From Patescibacteria group bacterium (lineage in GTDB: Bacteria > Patescibacteriota > Patescibacteriia > UBA9570 > JAHJKD01): 60,230 nt of DNA. A program made the position numbers and the translations under genes. The stretch spans positions 1 through 60,230 of the forward strand of contig JAZDOC010000005.1 in assembly GCA_043798935.1 (NCBI GenBank), written 5' to 3'. This document shows positions 54,999 to 60,082 of the stretch, in pieces. How positions within the stretch are numbered: the first letter of the stretch is position 1; each line of letters starts with the position of its first letter. The notes beneath the pieces are model-generated. The model ran no database searches and was not told the origin of the DNA. It saw only the letters and a program-made list of their open reading frames with translations.

Positions 54999-57185
54999 AT
55001 GATTAGCCAAAAGAAAGCTTTACTTATTCGCTTTCCACTTACTTCCATCGAAAACCATATCGATAAATTCGATAAGCTTTTTCATAATCTTTATTATTTA
55101 CTGCTTCAAGAAGATGGCCTGCATAACAGCGTAAGTTGTGAAATTATTATTATTAAAAATAAAATTAATTTTTACATCACTACGCCAGAAACTTTGGCTG
55201 AGCCAATTACGAATGTAGTTTTTGGTTTATTTCCGGAAATTGAAATAGATAAAATGAATAATTTTTTAAACATTGAAAAAGCTCCTGATCGGGCAATTGG
55301 TTATGGCATGAAATTACTCCAGGATGAAATGTATGCAATTAGAACTTTTCAGCAATCAGCTCCGCATGACCCATTAAGCTCTTTTCTAAATATCTTAGCC
55401 ACCGTACCGGCTACAGATGCTTTATTTTACCAAATAGTCTTTGAACCGGCTCATGATGAGATGAACACGGAAAACTCTGGATTATTCTACGGTGAAACTA
55501 AACGAAGCAGTGAGGCTGTTGACCAGCCAAAAGTAAACGCCTCTATGAGATTCATTTATCTTTTTCCTCAAGGTCGAAAAGATAAAGCATTGATTAAAAT
55601 TGAAGAAATTAAAAAAACATTTGATGTTTATTCAACTGAAAAAAATAAAATCGTTTTCAAGGAAGCGCAAAATATTCAAACATTTATTAAAGATTTTTTT
55701 GATCGAAAATTGAATCGTGACGTTGTTTTAACTCGTGAAGAATTAACCTCGCTTTTTCATATTCCGGATCCGGCTTTAAGAATGCCAGCTATTGATTGGA
55801 TTCTTTCCAAACGCGCTCAACCCCCTTTTAACTTACCCACGCCATATAATTCCGAGCCGGGTGAAGCCAGCTATTTTGCAACTACAAACTTTCGTGGCTC
55901 TAATATTTTGTTTGGTATCAAACGTGAAGACCGCCGACGTCATTTATATATTATCGGTAAGTCTGGCGTTGGTAAATCTAAATTACTGGAAGGTTTAATT
56001 CTAGATGATATCAGAGACGGCAAAGGCGTTTGTGTAATGGACCCTCATGGAGACCTTATTCAAAATATTATTAAATTTATTCCAGAAGAACGAGTTAAAG
56101 ACACAATTTATTTTAATGTTCCCGAGCTGGATTGGCCAGTTGCTTTTAACCCATTAGAAGGCATCTCGCTCGACATGAAACAGCAAATGACACAAGGGTT
56201 TATTGAAGTATTTAAGAAATTCTTCGGAGCAGACTGGTCGCCAAAAATCGAACATGTATTTCGGTTTACAGTACTCGCGCTTTTAGACTGCGAAAAATCA
56301 ACGGTTGTCGGCATGATGAAAATGCTTACTAACCGAAAATATCGTCAGACTATTATCCCCCAAATTCAAGATAGTGTAGTAAAACATTTCTGGGCAAATG
56401 AATTTTCTTCTTGGTCAGAAAAATTCGATAATGAAGCTATCTTGCCATTAGTAAATAAACTGGGGCAATTTTTATCTAATAATATTATTCGTAATATTGT
56501 AGCCCAGCCGGAAAACACAATCGATTTTAATGACGTATTAAATAATGAAAAAGTTCTTTTGATCGAAATGAGCAAAGGTAAATTGGGCGAGGAAAACTCG
56601 AACTTGCTTGGCGCGATGTTGATTACAAAAATTTATCAGACTGCCATGGAAAGAGCGAAAATTCCAGAAGCCGAGCGTAAAGAATTTTATTTATATATTG
56701 ATGAGTTCCAAAATTTCGCCACCGAAACATTTGAAAATATCTTGTCTGAGTCGAGAAAATACAAATTAAATCTTACTTTGTCACATCAATATTTAGCCCA
56801 GGTTCCGGCCGCTATTAAAGGCACTGTGTTTGGCAATGTAGGCAGTATGATATCTTTTAGAGTCGGTGCTGATGACGGCACTTATTTATCTAATGAGTAT
56901 CATCCAATTTTTGCAGTTGATGATTTTATTAACCTGGGTGTTAGAGAAATTCTAGTTAAAATGAGTGTTGAAGGAGCTACTACTCCTCCATTTTCAGCCC
57001 GCACCAAAGACGTTCCATTTATTCCCGAAAAAGATATGAGCCAAGCTGTTATCGATTACTCACATGAGCATTATGCCAAGAAACGTAAAGTTGTTGATGC
57101 CATGGTAGCTGAACTTTATAATGCCTCTGAAGATACTAATCCCGTAGCCGGACAGGAAGAAGAATTCGAACAACCGATTGTTTAA
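54999..57185 (+). CDS. VirD4/TraD/TrwB-like (type IV coupling protein/HerA-FtsK superfamily) P-loop ATPase with an N-terminal domain of about 300 aa and unknown function
   Basis: Walker A IIGKSGVGKSKLL, Walker B FYLYIDEFQNF, and a downstream LTLSHQY motif. No TM segment is evident. Confidence 0.65.
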   Translation: MISQKKALLIRFPLTSIENHIDKFDKLFHNLYYLLLQEDGLHNSVSCEIIIIKNKINFYITTPETLAEPITNVVFGLFPEIEIDKMNNFLNIEKAPDRAIGYGMKLLQDEMYAIRTFQQSAPHDPLSSFLNILATVPATDALFYQIVFEPAHDEMNTENSGLFYGETKRSSEAVDQPKVNASMRFIYLFPQGRKDKALIKIEEIKKTFDVYSTEKNKIVFKEAQNIQTFIKDFFDRKLNRDVVLTREELTSLFHIPDPALRMPAIDWILSKRAQPPFNLPTPYNSEPGEASYFATTNFRGSNILFGIKREDRRRHLYIIGKSGVGKSKLLEGLILDDIRDGKGVCVMDPHGDLIQNIIKFIPEERVKDTIYFNVPELDWPVAFNPLEGISLDMKQQMTQGFIEVFKKFFGADWSPKIEHVFRFTVLALLDCEKSTVVGMMKMLTNRKYRQTIIPQIQDSVVKHFWANEFSSWSEKFDNEAILPLVNKLGQFLSNNIIRNIVAQPENTIDFNDVLNNEKVLLIEMSKGKLGEENSNLLGAMLITKIYQTAMERAKIPEAERKEFYLYIDEFQNFATETFENILSESRKYKLNLTLSHQYLAQVPAAIKGTVFGNVGSMISFRVGADDGTYLSNEYHPIFAVDDFINLGVREILVKMSVEGATTPPFSARTKDVPFIPEKDMSQAVIDYSHEHYAKKRKVVDAMVAELYNASEDTNPVAGQEEEFEQPIV

Positions 57186-57202: not shown

Positions 57203-57233
57203 AAGCCCCGGATGAATTCGGGACTTTTATTTT
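57203..57233. terminator. Convergent terminator between the ATPase gene and cysK
   Basis: AAGCCCCG-GATGAATT-CGGGACTT (one mismatch) followed by TTATTTT. Abuts the cysK stop codon. Confidence 0.5.
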
Positions 57234-58132
57234 AACAATTCTGATTTAAATAAATCAGTACTCAAATACTTTTCACCTCGATCGGGTAAAATAACCACGA
57301 TTGTTTTGTTTGTTAATTTTAAACTGATTTGTTTAGACACAAATAAACTTGCACCTGAACTCATGCCCACTAACAATCCTTCGTGAGTTGCAATCCATCT
57401 AGCCATATTATAAGCTTGTGGTGGCGAAACTAAATACTCTTTGTCTATCAAATTATTATTAAATATTGCCCCACTAAAATCGCGCTTAGGATTTTGAAGT
57501 CCTTGAATTTTATAACCAGGAGTTGGTATAACACCGATAATTTTCGTGTGAGGCGAATATTTTTTAAATCTATTTGCCAATCCCATTAGCGTTCCTGACG
57601 TCCCGCTACCAGCAATTAAATAATCAATTTTATTTACTTCATTTAATATTTCCTTAGCCGTATCATGATAATGTGCTCTAACGTTATCGGGATTATTGAA
57701 TTGATTTACAAACCAATATTTTTGCGGATATTTTTTTTCTAATTCCTTAGCTTTATCTATCGCACCACATGTACCAAATTTGGGATGAGTTAAAATTAAT
57801 GTGGCTCCCAATGCTTTTAGCATGGATTTTCTTTCGGCACTCATTCCGGCCGACATCACTATATGCACTTGATATTTTTTATAGGCCCCGATCATAGCCA
57901 GTGATATTCCCATATTACCGCTAGTCGCTTCTAATATAATCTTTCCGGGTTTAAGTTGTTTTCTTTTTTCTGCTTGCTTAATCATAAATAAAGCTACTCT
58001 GTCTTTAACGGACCCGCCTGGATTTTGCCCTTCTAATTTTGCTAAAATTTTTACTTGTTTATTATTAGACAAATTATTAAATTCAATCATTGGTGTATTG
58101 CCTATACTTTGAATTAAATTTTGATATTTCAT
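57227..58132 (-). CDS. cysK: Cysteine synthase (O-acetylserine sulfhydrylase, PLP-dependent)
   Basis: IGNTPMIE..., LEGQNPGGSVKDR (PLP Lys), EATSGNMGISLA, GSGTSGT. Confidence 0.88.
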   Translation of the reverse strand: MKYQNLIQSIGNTPMIEFNNLSNNKQVKILAKLEGQNPGGSVKDRVALFMIKQAEKRKQLKPGKIILEATSGNMGISLAMIGAYKKYQVHIVMSAGMSAERKSMLKALGATLILTHPKFGTCGAIDKAKELEKKYPQKYWFVNQFNNPDNVRAHYHDTAKEILNEVNKIDYLIAGSGTSGTLMGLANRFKKYSPHTKIIGVIPTPGYKIQGLQNPKRDFSGAIFNNNLIDKEYLVSPPQAYNMARWIATHEGLLVGMSSGASLFVSKQISLKLTNKTIVVILPDRGEKYLSTDLFKSELLK

Positions 58133-58148
58133 AAATGTAATTTTTAAA

Positions 58149-58174
58149 TAAAAAAATCTCGGTAAGGCCGAGAT
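58149..58174 (-). terminator. Intrinsic terminator in the cysK leader
   Basis: Minus strand: AUCUCGG-CCUUA-CCGAGAU followed by U7, ending 16 nt before the cysK ATG. Confidence 0.7.
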
Positions 58175-58204
58175 ATAATAAGATGTTGGATTGATATCGC
58201 TTCA

Positions 58205-58282
58205 TTAACAACAACACAAAGATCTCGGCTTATAGCAAAGATCGCTACAACAATTGTCGATATTAATGAATTTAAACTTCAT
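58205..58282 (-). CDS. Cys-rich 25-aa leader peptide ORF (MKFKFINIDNCCSDLCYKPRSLCCC)
   Basis: Manual translation. ATG at 58282-58280, TAA at 58207-58205. Cys codons at positions 11, 12, 16, 23, 24 and 25. Not in the ORF track (<60 aa). Confidence 0.55.
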   Translation of the reverse strand: MKFKFINIDNCCSDLCYKPRSLCCC

Positions 58283-58381
58283 GCTATTATTTTAACATTA
58301 TAATATAATAATGCAATATTTAATTTTACAAAAAGAATGTATTTATTATTACTGTCGACTTAAAAAACTAGAAGCTAATAT

Positions 58382-60082
58382 TTAATATGTCTCTTTATTA
58401 TAACAATCTTCACAATATATTAACTCTTTTCCGTTAGGAGAATAAGCGGTTTCAAACGACTTAATGCATTTCCCTGAATGATTATGATCAGGCTGAGTGC
58501 ACATGCATTCTCGCTTCCAGATGGCACGCGGGGTACATAATTGCATGCGGGCATAGCGTCGGCAATGATGGCAATTTTTTGGAATTGGCAAACCTTGTTT
58601 TTTATAAAAAGCTAATTCTTGAGGAATTATTTTGTAATTCTTTTGGCACGTTTTACAAGATAAGACTTGTTTACAAATATCATCTTCGACTTGATTAATA
58701 TCTAGTAGTACTCGATATTTTTGCGTTTGATTATTATTTTCCCTTTGATACCAGCGCCATTCTTTTTGCATAACACTGTCTTCTTTCATCGGAAAATAAT
58801 CTTGAGCAACAGTTTCATTATATGCGAAAATAGAATCAGCAATAGAAAATAATTCTCCCCACTCTCCACTCTTTTGCATGTAATTAATTATTTTTCTTTT
58901 CATTTTAAAATATTCATCTTTTGAATATTGCTTATTCAAAATACAATATTCTTGCTTATTCATAGAAACACAACCAAATAAATCATGCGAATCTCGACAA
59001 CGTTCGCAATAATCTAAATTATGAGATTTCCATATAAATAAACCAAAACGACAATTATTAATTCGATTTCCCCCCGATATTTCATAGCATAACTCAACAT
59101 TTTCGTTGTTAGATAAATCATAGCTGTCTTTTACTTCCTGGGCCTGATTAATATATTTACAATTGTCCAACTTATCAACGTCAAAACAATTAAAAGCATT
59201 ATTAGAATTATTAATATAATTACCACTCACTTGTTCGTTCTTAATACCGGTCATAAAAATGCGAGCATGTTTAAGCTTTTGTTCATTAAAATTTTTCCAT
59301 AAATACTTCACTTTTTCCGGATCACAGAAATCAATTTTAGAAGCAATTATTTTATATTCCTCTTCAGAATATTGTTTATTATTAATACAATAATTTTTAT
59401 TTCTAAGACCAGCACAACCCATGCAATCTGAACAACCTTTACAATCATAACAATACTTCGAATTATTAGAATCAAAACAATCCTGACAATAAAAACAATT
59501 ATATAAATTATCGGAATTAATACACTCATAACATAGTTCACTGTTTCTAAGAATTAAACTATCTACGCAACTAAAACAATTATAAGGATTACCATAATAA
59601 CAATCTTCACAATTAATCGATCCGGCAATTAAATAACAATTTTTGGAATAACCAATTACATTGCTATAATCACAATTTTCACAATCTTCAATTAGAATAT
59701 TGAATCTCGGTGTGCGATATTGAAGCTCTTTATATTGCTCAAAAAATGGTTGTGAAAAATCAAACTCTTTTCCGTAATCTCGAGCATCCCCGCCCACATC
59801 GCTACGCGAAGCGTTGCAGGCAGGCCATTTATCTGAATAAAAACAATCGCTACAATAAACAGTTAGAGGCAACACTCCGGAATAAGTTGAAAGTATCTTT
59901 TTCTTGCATAAATCGCATTCGTCATTATACAGCGATATTTCATTCCGGTGCGACATTCGGCGTTGAGCGCGGCAATCCGGGCAGAGTGTCGGCGTTGGCA
60001 CGTCTATCCGATCATAAAAAACTTGGTCAGTATCGGTTATTTTAAATGTTTTGTGACAATTTTTACATTGAATGTTTTTCAT
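58382..60082 (-). CDS. Cysteine-rich multi-zinc-ribbon protein (566 aa, about 47 Cys by my count)
   Basis: Related CxxC...FY...P.P..C..CR..R modules at both termini, and a central array of CxxC/NC repeats (NCEDC, NCFSC, LCYEC, NCFYCQDC, YCYDCKGCSDCMGC). Confidence 0.6.
   Translation of the reverse strand: MKNIQCKNCHKTFKITDTDQVFYDRIDVPTPTLCPDCRAQRRMSHRNEISLYNDECDLCKKKILSTYSGVLPLTVYCSDCFYSDKWPACNASRSDVGGDARDYGKEFDFSQPFFEQYKELQYRTPRFNILIEDCENCDYSNVIGYSKNCYLIAGSINCEDCYYGNPYNCFSCVDSLILRNSELCYECINSDNLYNCFYCQDCFDSNNSKYCYDCKGCSDCMGCAGLRNKNYCINNKQYSEEEYKIIASKIDFCDPEKVKYLWKNFNEQKLKHARIFMTGIKNEQVSGNYINNSNNAFNCFDVDKLDNCKYINQAQEVKDSYDLSNNENVELCYEISGGNRINNCRFGLFIWKSHNLDYCERCRDSHDLFGCVSMNKQEYCILNKQYSKDEYFKMKRKIINYMQKSGEWGELFSIADSIFAYNETVAQDYFPMKEDSVMQKEWRWYQRENNNQTQKYRVLLDINQVEDDICKQVLSCKTCQKNYKIIPQELAFYKKQGLPIPKNCHHCRRYARMQLCTPRAIWKRECMCTQPDHNHSGKCIKSFETAYSPNGKELIYCEDCYNKETY

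Follow-up and report, generated by a model that had tools for sequence, protein, structure and literature searches.

The 60,230-nucleotide (nt) stretch of Patescibacteria group bacterium DNA analysed here (contig JAZDOC010000005.1, positions 1 to 60,230; hereafter the window) carries on its minus strand, directly upstream of a cysK-like gene, a short leader in which an open reading frame (ORF) of 25 codons, rich in cysteine codons, is followed by an intrinsic terminator. This element is real and conserved: it occurs at no fewer than 27 loci, the window and 26 others, and the start codon, the in-frame Cys run and the open frame are kept in all 27. It is very probably a ribosome-mediated transcription attenuator of the trp/his/leu type, which would sense cysteinyl-tRNA(Cys) and control the cysteine synthase gene. 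An original prediction, made from the letters of the window, had already proposed this architecture, with Cys as the sensed amino acid and cysteine synthase as the controlled gene; it is now supported by the conservation at 27 loci and by compensatory changes in the antiterminator. From these comparisons we infer that the leader ORF is translated, that ribosomes stall on it, and that termination responds to cysteine.

Anatomy and conservation of the leader

The whole element lies at 58147-58293 of the minus strand. It matches the family covariance model R1, described below, with 99.4 bits (E ~1e-15), and this match, from 58293 to 58147, is the single credible one within the 60-kb window. As read from the sequence and the ORF list, the leader ORF (58205-58282; MKFKFINIDNCCSDLCYKPRSLCCC) comprises 25 codons and a TAA stop (58207-58205), and homologous peptides are found at the 26 other loci. 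Six of its 25 residues are Cys. The first cluster, codons 11-12 (UGU UGU, 58247-58252), provides the proposed sensing codons, and its family equivalent is a CC or CCC(C) run at codons 9-17. Immediately 3′ of it comes segment 1 (GAUCUUUGCU, 58234-58243), inside which sits the codon for Cys16, a residue specific to the window. Segment 2 (AGCCGAGAUC, 58221-58230) can pair with segment 1 to form a putative anti-antiterminator hairpin, a helix drawn from minimum free energy (MFE) folds and from the family; alternatively, through GCCGAGAU, it can pair with the 5′ arm of the terminator to form the antiterminator, as indicated by duplex energy, folding and covariation. The second cluster, codons 23-25 (58208-58216), is a conserved feature of the family. 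The terminator hairpin begins 30 nt beyond the stop codon. Segment 3 (AUCUCGGC, 58167-58174) serves both as its 5′ arm and as the 3′ strand of the antiterminator, and segment 4 (CCGAGAU, 58156-58162) is its 3′ arm; both were recovered by terminator scanning, and segment 3 also by folding. The stem thus consists of AUCUCGG (58174-58168), a CCUUA loop and CCGAGAU (58162-58156), making 7 G+C-rich base pairs (bp), and is followed by the U tract UUUUUUAUUU (U6AU3, 58146-58155). From the terminator end (58149) to the cysK ATG (58132) there are 16 nt, and 72 nt separate the leader ORF from the cysK-like gene. The latter (57227-58132, minus strand) encodes a 301-residue, CysK/CysM-like member of the pyridoxal phosphate-dependent cysteine synthase family (Pfam PALP, E = 7e-67), whose predicted activity is that of a cysteine synthase.

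Most of this layout had been described correctly in the original prediction. The 25-codon ORF with Cys at codons 11, 12, 16 and 23-25 is confirmed on the minus strand (58282-58205), and the terminator stands where it had been placed, with its 30-nt and 16-nt spacings. Its tract of seven U, however, contains six after the stem, and seven only if the last U of the stem is counted. Likewise, GCCGAGAU (58229-58222) and AUCUCGGC (58174-58167) are perfectly complementary, giving an 8-bp antiterminator in the window, but the former does not occupy exactly codons 18-20: it starts at the last position of codon 18 and ends at the first of codon 21.

How often would such an arrangement arise by chance? 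When ORFs of 15-40 codons with at least three Cys, a CC pair and a terminator downstream were screened for, the leader ORF was the sole match in the window (120 kb over both strands), and the same screen returned two cases in 1.36 Mb of non-family loci. R1 detected no other copy of the motif elsewhere in the window or before other genes, over the window and 83 fetched loci (84 sources). It could still be argued that the ORF is a chance frame in an AT-rich spacer and that the hairpin terminates the upstream gene for a 566-residue protein, given that short ORFs are common in such DNA and that the hairpin does lie downstream of that gene. We give this explanation practically no credence: the hairpin stands 208 nt beyond the stop codon of the 566-residue protein gene, from which a promoter-like region separates it; loci with a divergent upstream gene have the leader as well; the background is about 2 ORF-terminator pairs per 1.36 Mb; and the comparative data contradict the explanation.

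Relatives were sought at 172 loci around cysK homologues, collected by an alignment-based genome scan, a metagenome scan and ten exact-protein look-ups, with two more loci (L173 and L174) added later; a script then searched for short upstream ORFs with at least three Cys. A scan of genome contigs with the single CysK protein as query yielded no relative, and the alignment query found them. The metagenome scan returned mostly distant cysteine synthases, with at least two family members among the matches listed. The closest proteins to the CysK of the window, from Peregrinibacteria and other Patescibacteria, are 69% identical to it, and there is no close relative. The leader is present at all 20 fetched loci whose cysK identity is at least 53%, and in six others at 47-52% (L008, L009, L015, L018, L020, and L084); it is absent from about 135 more distant fetched homologues, from Actinomycetota, Chloroflexota, most Bacteroidota and others. 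Family hosts are labelled as Peribacteria, Moraniibacteriota, Dojkabacteria, unclassified Patescibacteria, Omnitrophota, Krumholzibacteriota, Bacteroidales and, probably mislabelled, Bdellovibrionales metagenome-assembled genomes (MAGs).

R1 was built from a MAFFT alignment of 25 loci (A2), using the segment 1:2 and 3:4 helices. Out of sample, it matched L173 with 96 bits and L174 with 62 bits, in both cases directly upstream of cysK. The former is a 4.27-Mb genome in which the leader has a SusC-like neighbour and cysK is 62% identical to that of the window; the latter is a Bacteroidales MAG, with a cysK 60% identical. The element is therefore not confined to candidate phyla radiation (CPR) genomes. 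The L173 leader is MNFNKTLTKIISCCCGTGTVPGSACLCM, and the same replacements of A/U by G/C are found in each of its segments 1-4 when it is compared with the core family. In divergent members, the register of segment 1 was no better after realignment with the covariance model.

Throughout the 25 aligned loci, to which the counts below refer unless stated otherwise, the anatomy is uniform. The leader ORF has an ATG start and a length of 21-32 codons, with the first Cys run (CC, CCC or CCCC) at codons 9-17. The stop codon is followed after 43-56 nt by the U run, which lies 16-31 nt from the cysK ATG in 23 loci. All 25 leaders possess a hairpin and U-tract terminator, whose stability ranges from -7.8 to -18.9 kcal/mol. 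For the core of the family, the peptide consensus reads MKxxNxYNQxNNCCCGLGIVPRSACLCL, with which the window peptide aligns without gaps from the Cys run to the end (NCCSDLCYKPRSLCCC vs. NCCCGLGIVPRSACLCL). The neighbouring genes, for their part, differ at every locus, and at three of them (L164, L165, and L170) the upstream gene is on the opposite strand. Such varied flanks and divergent upstream genes indicate that the leader travels with cysK and that the terminator belongs to cysK. Two further loci deserve mention: the first Cys run is degraded to C-R-C in L161 (2830-2977) and to a single Cys in L006 (2317-2463), while cluster 2, the helices and the terminator are retained in both, which may be attenuators in decay or with a different tuning. 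In addition, a tRNA gene (Rfam tRNA match) lies directly upstream of the leader-cysK unit in L001 (2-90), and a sequence that looks tRNA-like by eye is located about 150 nt upstream of the leader in L018; this adjacency might hint at cassette insertion or mobility.

In none of the 25 leaders does an in-frame Cys codon precede cluster 1, UGU and UGC interchange within that cluster, and the rest of the N-terminal peptide is variable. On this comparison, the Cys codons are therefore selected as codons. The product might instead be a functional small peptide, either a precursor of a ribosomally synthesized and post-translationally modified peptide or a metal- or redox-binding one, with the hairpin merely serving as its terminator. 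A peptide in which 6 of 25 residues are Cys, with a gene for a Cys-rich protein upstream in the window, does invite such a reading, which we nevertheless judge highly improbable. No conserved modification, transport or immunity genes adjoin the leader, whose neighbours are never the same, and the Cys-rich upstream protein is absent from the other loci, whereas the connection to cysK at a fixed spacing is invariable. The conserved residues other than Cys, Pro-Arg, are simply the translation of the CCGAGA helix strand, and a plain terminator would have no need of the covariation that links it to the sequence within the ORF.

Competing helices and the proposed switch

RNAalifold, run on the MAFFT alignment, returned the terminator only; the 1:2 and 2:3 helices were therefore specified by hand and evaluated by pair counts on A2, repeated with 27 sequences, together with controls. 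In the antiterminator (2:3), 84% of the cells are paired and 6 of 9 pairs show compensatory changes, with a covariation score reached by 0 of 500 shuffles. When the partner strand is slid by 1-3 columns, pairing drops to 17-63%, and over all slid controls it reaches at most 64%; the counts on 27 sequences give the same result. Across the alignment, pairing amounts to 92% in the terminator helix, where 7 of 9 pairs are compensatory, and to 72% in the 1:2 hairpin, where 7 of 10 are. One column of segment 2 covaries both with segment 1 (UA:15, CG:4) and with segment 3 (AU:17, GC:6), and that same segment-3 column covaries with segment 4 (UA:16, CG:6). Linked covariation of this kind is the signature expected of mutually exclusive helices. 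The window contributes a compensatory change of its own, a G-C replacing the family U-A in the pair adjoining CCG/CGG.

Folding agrees with this picture. The MFE of the minus strand from 58300 to 58130 (171 nt) is -34.2 kcal/mol (z = -2.8 vs. shuffles), and the corresponding structure contains the terminator and a long hairpin within the ORF, in which GAUCUUUGCU, directly 3′ of Cys codons 11-12, is base-paired to AGCCGAGAUC, so that the antiterminator strand would normally be sequestered, as in the 1:2/2:3/3:4 arrangement known from trp attenuation. Under constrained folding, the free window RNA prefers the 1:2 hairpin plus terminator (-32.0 kcal/mol) over a forced antiterminator (-25.3). When a ribosome is simulated as a mask, the two states become iso-energetic, at -16.9 for the terminator vs. 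-17.1 for the antiterminator with codon 11 in the A site, and at -18.2 vs. -18.1 with codon 12. In these calculations, the near-balance of the two masked states is what a kinetically controlled switch would require. Window RNA ending at the terminator loop folds into the antiterminator. The 2:3 pairing was also evaluated in each leader as the best duplex between the ORF part 3′ of the Cys run and the terminator 5′ arm, compared with mononucleotide shuffles. In the window this duplex reaches -14.0 kcal/mol, vs. -6.8 ± 2.0 for the shuffles (p = 0.003). Cognate duplexes average -15.7 kcal/mol, vs. -12.2 for non-cognate ones, and 23 of the 25 leaders have p ≤ 0.05 against shuffles.

These results bear on several points of the original prediction. 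Its search upstream of cysK/cysM relatives for a Cys-codon ORF with a terminator uncovers the same layout at the 26 other loci, with the ORF and the complementary segments both kept. The covariation it proposed to look for is present as compensatory changes in 6 of the 9 antiterminator pairs, and the fold of 58130-58300 that it suggested favours the terminator in free RNA, with near-equal energies under the stalled-ribosome masks. Its set of helices was right as to the antiterminator and the terminator, but overlooked the putative anti-antiterminator hairpin of segments 1 and 2 after Cys11-12.

The geometry is that of a leader whose first Cys run can be read as a sensor. In coordinates that start from the initial base of the first Cys codon, the medians place segment 1 at +10 to +18, segment 2 at +21 to +29 and the stop codon at +48. 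If its A site held the second or third Cys codon, a ribosome would protect the RNA to about +15 to +21, covering segment 1 and leaving segment 2 free. The proposed sequence of events is as follows. Transcription would begin at the leader AUG or a few nucleotides before it, and a ribosome would translate the 25-codon ORF. As long as Cys-tRNA is plentiful, the ribosome would pass Cys11-12, after which segment 1 (58243-58234) would pair with segment 2 (58230-58221), or else the ribosome itself would cover segment 2. With segment 2 occupied, segment 3 would pair with segment 4, and the hairpin and U tract would halt RNA polymerase 16 nt before cysK. If Cys-tRNA became scarce, the ribosome would stall with codon 11 or 12 in the A site and its footprint over segment 1; segment 2 would then pair with segment 3 as soon as the latter is transcribed (GCCGAGAU:AUCUCGGC, 8 bp), so that no terminator would form and cysK would be transcribed.

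Proposed translation start and the second cysteine cluster

The leader ORF has no evident Shine-Dalgarno (SD) sequence. The original prediction was correct on this, although the absence is uninformative: an SD-like sequence precedes only 4 of the 46 large ORFs in the window, cysK is also without one, and in this DNA of 33% G+C most start codons are preceded by nothing other than A/T-rich sequence. The missing SD is thus no objection to translation of the leader, since the genome scarcely uses SD sequences. Instead, the best sigma-70-like -10 hexamer ends exactly 6 nt before the ATG in 11 of the 25 leaders, and 4-9 nt before it in 17. Among the 11 are divergent members whose promoters come close to consensus, such as L007 (TTGACA-17-TATATT-6-ATG) and L081. 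In the window, the sequence and the family geometry point to a putative promoter at 58289-58316 (minus strand), with a -35 box TTGCAT (58316-58311), a 16-nt spacer, a -10 box TAAAAT (58294-58289) and 6 nt to the ATG. This recurrent arrangement of a -10 box, 6 nt and an ATG across the family suggests that the leader ORF is leaderless or nearly so.

The promoter geometry also helps to assess whether the leader might be a riboswitch or a protein-binding RNA acting without translation, in which case the ORF would be incidental. The terminator and antiterminator helices are indeed the best-conserved parts of the element, and the lack of an SD fits a leader that is not translated. On the other hand, the -10 box is placed for a leaderless AUG, and an ORF with an in-frame Cys run is kept in 27 of 27 loci despite AT-richness and a variable N-terminus and length, its Cys codons varying synonymously and being absent elsewhere in frame. 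Outside the three helices there is little conserved sequence that could form a ligand pocket, and Rfam provides no match. We therefore regard a translation-independent leader as very unlikely.

What then of the second Cys cluster? The last eight codons include one or more in-frame Cys codons in all 25 leaders, and two or more in 19. The TGY counts by frame are 50:22:2 in the 25 leaders and 26:6:2 in the 13 divergent members. The first codon of the cluster lies 1-13 nt 3′ of segment 2, usually at +36, so placed that 60-100% of segment 2 would lie under a ribosome decoding the cluster in 24 of 25 leaders, whereas almost none of it would lie under a ribosome at the stop codon. The caveat, voiced with the original prediction, that a stall at codons 23-25 would mask the antiterminator strand is thus real and family-wide. 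An outer helix between the N-terminal coding region and cluster 2 was considered as the reason for the cluster and rejected: it is strong in the window, but present in 5 of the 25 leaders only. One may speculate that the cluster keeps the ribosome over segment 2 long enough for the terminator to form, that its UG steps make the polymerase pause after the 1:2 hairpin, or that the nascent peptide exerts an effect.

These observations leave room for an attenuator whose decisive signal goes beyond a shortage of Cys-tRNA at cluster 1. Cluster 2, or a nascent Cys-rich peptide in the exit tunnel, could hold the ribosome on segment 2, possibly in a TnaC-like response to free cysteine, a thiol or a metal; termination would then be imposed actively, making the leader a two-checkpoint switch. 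The universal presence and strong frame bias of cluster 2, its coverage of segment 2 by a decoding ribosome, and the failure of RNA pairing to account for it across the family all speak for such a signal. Against it, the on/off logic is already explained by stalling at cluster 1, which is met first; the U/G-rich tract could instead provide pause sites for RNA polymerase, and residues other than Cys are poorly conserved outside the RNA helices. On balance, we find it improbable that the decisive signal lies there. Somewhat less doubtful, though still unlikely, is an attenuator with two checkpoints, in which the first Cys run would turn expression on when Cys-tRNA is scarce and cluster 2, about one ribosome length downstream, would park the ribosome on the antiterminator strand and enforce termination, possibly responding to cysteine, a thiol or a metal through the nascent peptide. 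If true, this design would give an ultrasensitive or band-pass response on a leaderless mRNA, in lineages largely devoid of SD-led initiation.

To return to attenuation by Cys-tRNA shortage at the first cluster, which we favour, a number of findings weigh against it and should be set out together. The most direct is cluster 2 itself, conserved and positioned so that a stall there covers segment 2 and favours termination, which the preferred mechanism leaves unexplained; it still works, because a starved first ribosome would meet cluster 1 first. The 1:2 hairpin is significant on its own in only 13 of the 25 leaders, and five show it weakly or not at all. Its core duplex in the window is modest by itself (E = -6.1, p = 0.17); there it is strengthened by an outer stem, which is not conserved elsewhere. 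Equilibrium folding with ribosome masks, a crude simulation, gives the expected switch (terminator when the RNA is free or the ribosome is at the stop codon, antiterminator when it is stalled) in about half of the loci, the remainder being always terminator or always antiterminator, although such one-way equilibrium folds are not unusual for kinetically controlled attenuators. Many members are closely related, with an effective number of sequences of 14.6, so that the covariation counts are not all independent. The promoter and start in the window are ambiguous, an alternative TTGTAA/TATATT pair at 58331-58302 scoring equally. Finally, the NCBIfam model TIGR01136 (cysKM) matches the regulated protein with 331.5 bits, just under its cut-off of 344.

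Genomic surroundings and comparison with known systems

Upstream of the leader, the gene for the 566-residue protein (58382-60082, minus strand) encodes many CxxC pairs and an N-terminal treble-clef zinc finger (PF13451, E = 4.5e-6). It is next to cysK in none of the related loci and is therefore not part of the attenuator unit. On the other side, a gene for a 728-residue homologue of TraG/VirD4/TrwB-like type IV coupling proteins (54999-57185, plus strand; weak Pfam matches) is convergent with cysK, and the 41-nt gap between the two stop codons contains a G+C-rich hairpin, CCCGGATGAATTCGGG (57207-57222).

Searches of Rfam 15 returned no relevant match at E ≤ 10 in 57900-58600, and none that reached the gathering score for the window or for three loci of the family; Pfam and NCBIfam contain no family for the leader peptides. 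In a literature search of incomplete journal coverage, neither a terminator-type Cys leader before cysK nor leader-peptide attenuation in Patescibacteria was found. The putative cysteine-sensing attenuator family was thus not found described in Rfam, Pfam, NCBIfam or the literature, while the kind of regulator to which it would belong is well known. Among classical leader-peptide attenuators with a terminator and an antiterminator, no case for cysteine biosynthesis was found described, and the present family would supply the canonical version for cysteine synthase; the cysteine-related cases that we did find are the translational attenuators of mycobacteria and a predicted cysS leader of Rhodobacterales, discussed below.

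To our knowledge, almost nothing is known of gene regulation in Patescibacteria/CPR, most lineages of which are uncultured. The element implies that these small-genome bacteria would make their own cysteine and regulate its synthesis, couple transcription to translation, and initiate on mRNAs without SD sequences, probably leaderless ones. Its Cys codons also offer independent, sequence-only evidence that a divergent CysK/CysM clade acts in cysteine synthesis. Because normal-sized genomes of the Bacteroidota type also carry the element, tests in tractable hosts should be feasible.

The T-box leaders found before Firmicutes cys genes bind tRNA directly, through a structured RNA of at least 200 nt and with no need for translation. 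Both the signal (charging of tRNA(Cys)) and the output (terminator vs. antiterminator) would be the same as here, but the element of the window is about 135 nt long, has no T-box sequence and does not match the Rfam T-box model (RF00230). Two other loci, labelled Bdellovibrionales MAGs, with cysK homologues of 48-49% identity and no Cys leader ORF (L010, 1145-1354; L013, upstream of cysK at 2501), have longer, structured leaders with the T-box core sequence AGGUGGAACCACGG. That of L010 (49% identity) gives a weak Rfam T-box match, at 34 bits (E = 1e-4) and below gathering, with a specifier codon that is not reliably readable; it would be a functional analogue of the Cys leader.

Cys-rich leader peptides have been described before other cys genes. 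Predicted Cys leader peptides without terminators precede actinobacterial cys operons (Seliverstov et al., 2005, PMC1262725). In mycobacteria, leaderless polycysteine small ORFs act as cysteine-responsive translational attenuators, with the response shown in M. smegmatis, and attenuation mediated by upstream ORFs was stated not to have been previously described for cysteine (Canestrari et al., 2020, bioRxiv 10.1101/834739). These systems share with ours runs of Cys in short ORFs upstream of cysteine-biosynthesis genes, including cysK1; their short ORFs are leaderless, as ours probably is. Contrary to the present element, the mycobacterial type is translational: it sequesters a downstream SD, has no terminator hairpin, and carries its Cys tract at the C-terminus. 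Here, an intrinsic terminator and an antiterminator are conserved, the main Cys run is in the middle of the ORF, and cysK lacks an SD.

Other Cys-containing upstream ORFs turned up among the distant homologues. In two Dehalococcoidia loci (L019 and L090), positions -112 to -19 of the cysK homologue hold a common ORF, MILFSNPGEFF[A/T]CCLDRFPQNALNCAGTIQN, with a CC pair, which ends 19 nt before the gene and may be a Cys leader of its own type. Different ORFs with a Cys run precede distant cysK homologues (41% identity) in two GC-rich loci (L125, -186 to -87; L152, 897-986). One ends in ...LACCCCPHPC, a C-terminal poly-Cys tract like that of the mycobacterial type, and the other reads MSTLLRSGCTCCRPM..., followed by a terminator-like hairpin.

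Closer in design is the uORFC-8-2 motif of Rhodobacterales, for which a Cys-Cys upstream ORF with an intrinsic terminator has been predicted ahead of cysS (Brewer et al., 2021, PMC8632094). Both it and the present element are computational predictions of a ribosome-mediated attenuator, with tandem Cys codons (14-15 in uORFC-8-2), stems and a terminal U run. The differences set them apart by description: uORFC-8-2 controls a cysteinyl-tRNA synthetase in alpha-proteobacteria, with Cys codons inside the first stem and no second cluster described, whereas the present leader precedes a cysK/cysM-like gene in hosts that are not alpha-proteobacterial, and its Cys run comes before the first stem.

The nearest mechanistic parallels are the classical leaders trpL, hisL, leuL, thrL, pheL, and ilvL. 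In common with these, the element shows hairpins 2:3 and 3:4 that exclude each other, with a predicted 1:2 hairpin that would compete with 2:3, an intrinsic terminator placed directly ahead of the structural gene and, as in the trpL/hisL type, regulatory codons placed so that a stalled ribosome would hide segment 1. It has no sequence or Rfam-model similarity to them. It differs in its predicted signal, cysteine, in its target, a single cysK/cysM-like gene, and in its hosts, which are Patescibacteria/CPR and Bacteroidota-type bacteria. Its leader ORF has no SD and is probably leaderless, and it runs about 19 nt beyond segment 2, bearing there the second Cys cluster. Two traits may thus set this cysteine leader apart among attenuators of the trp/his/leu type, namely a probably leaderless ORF and a second cluster of Cys codons over the antiterminator strand.

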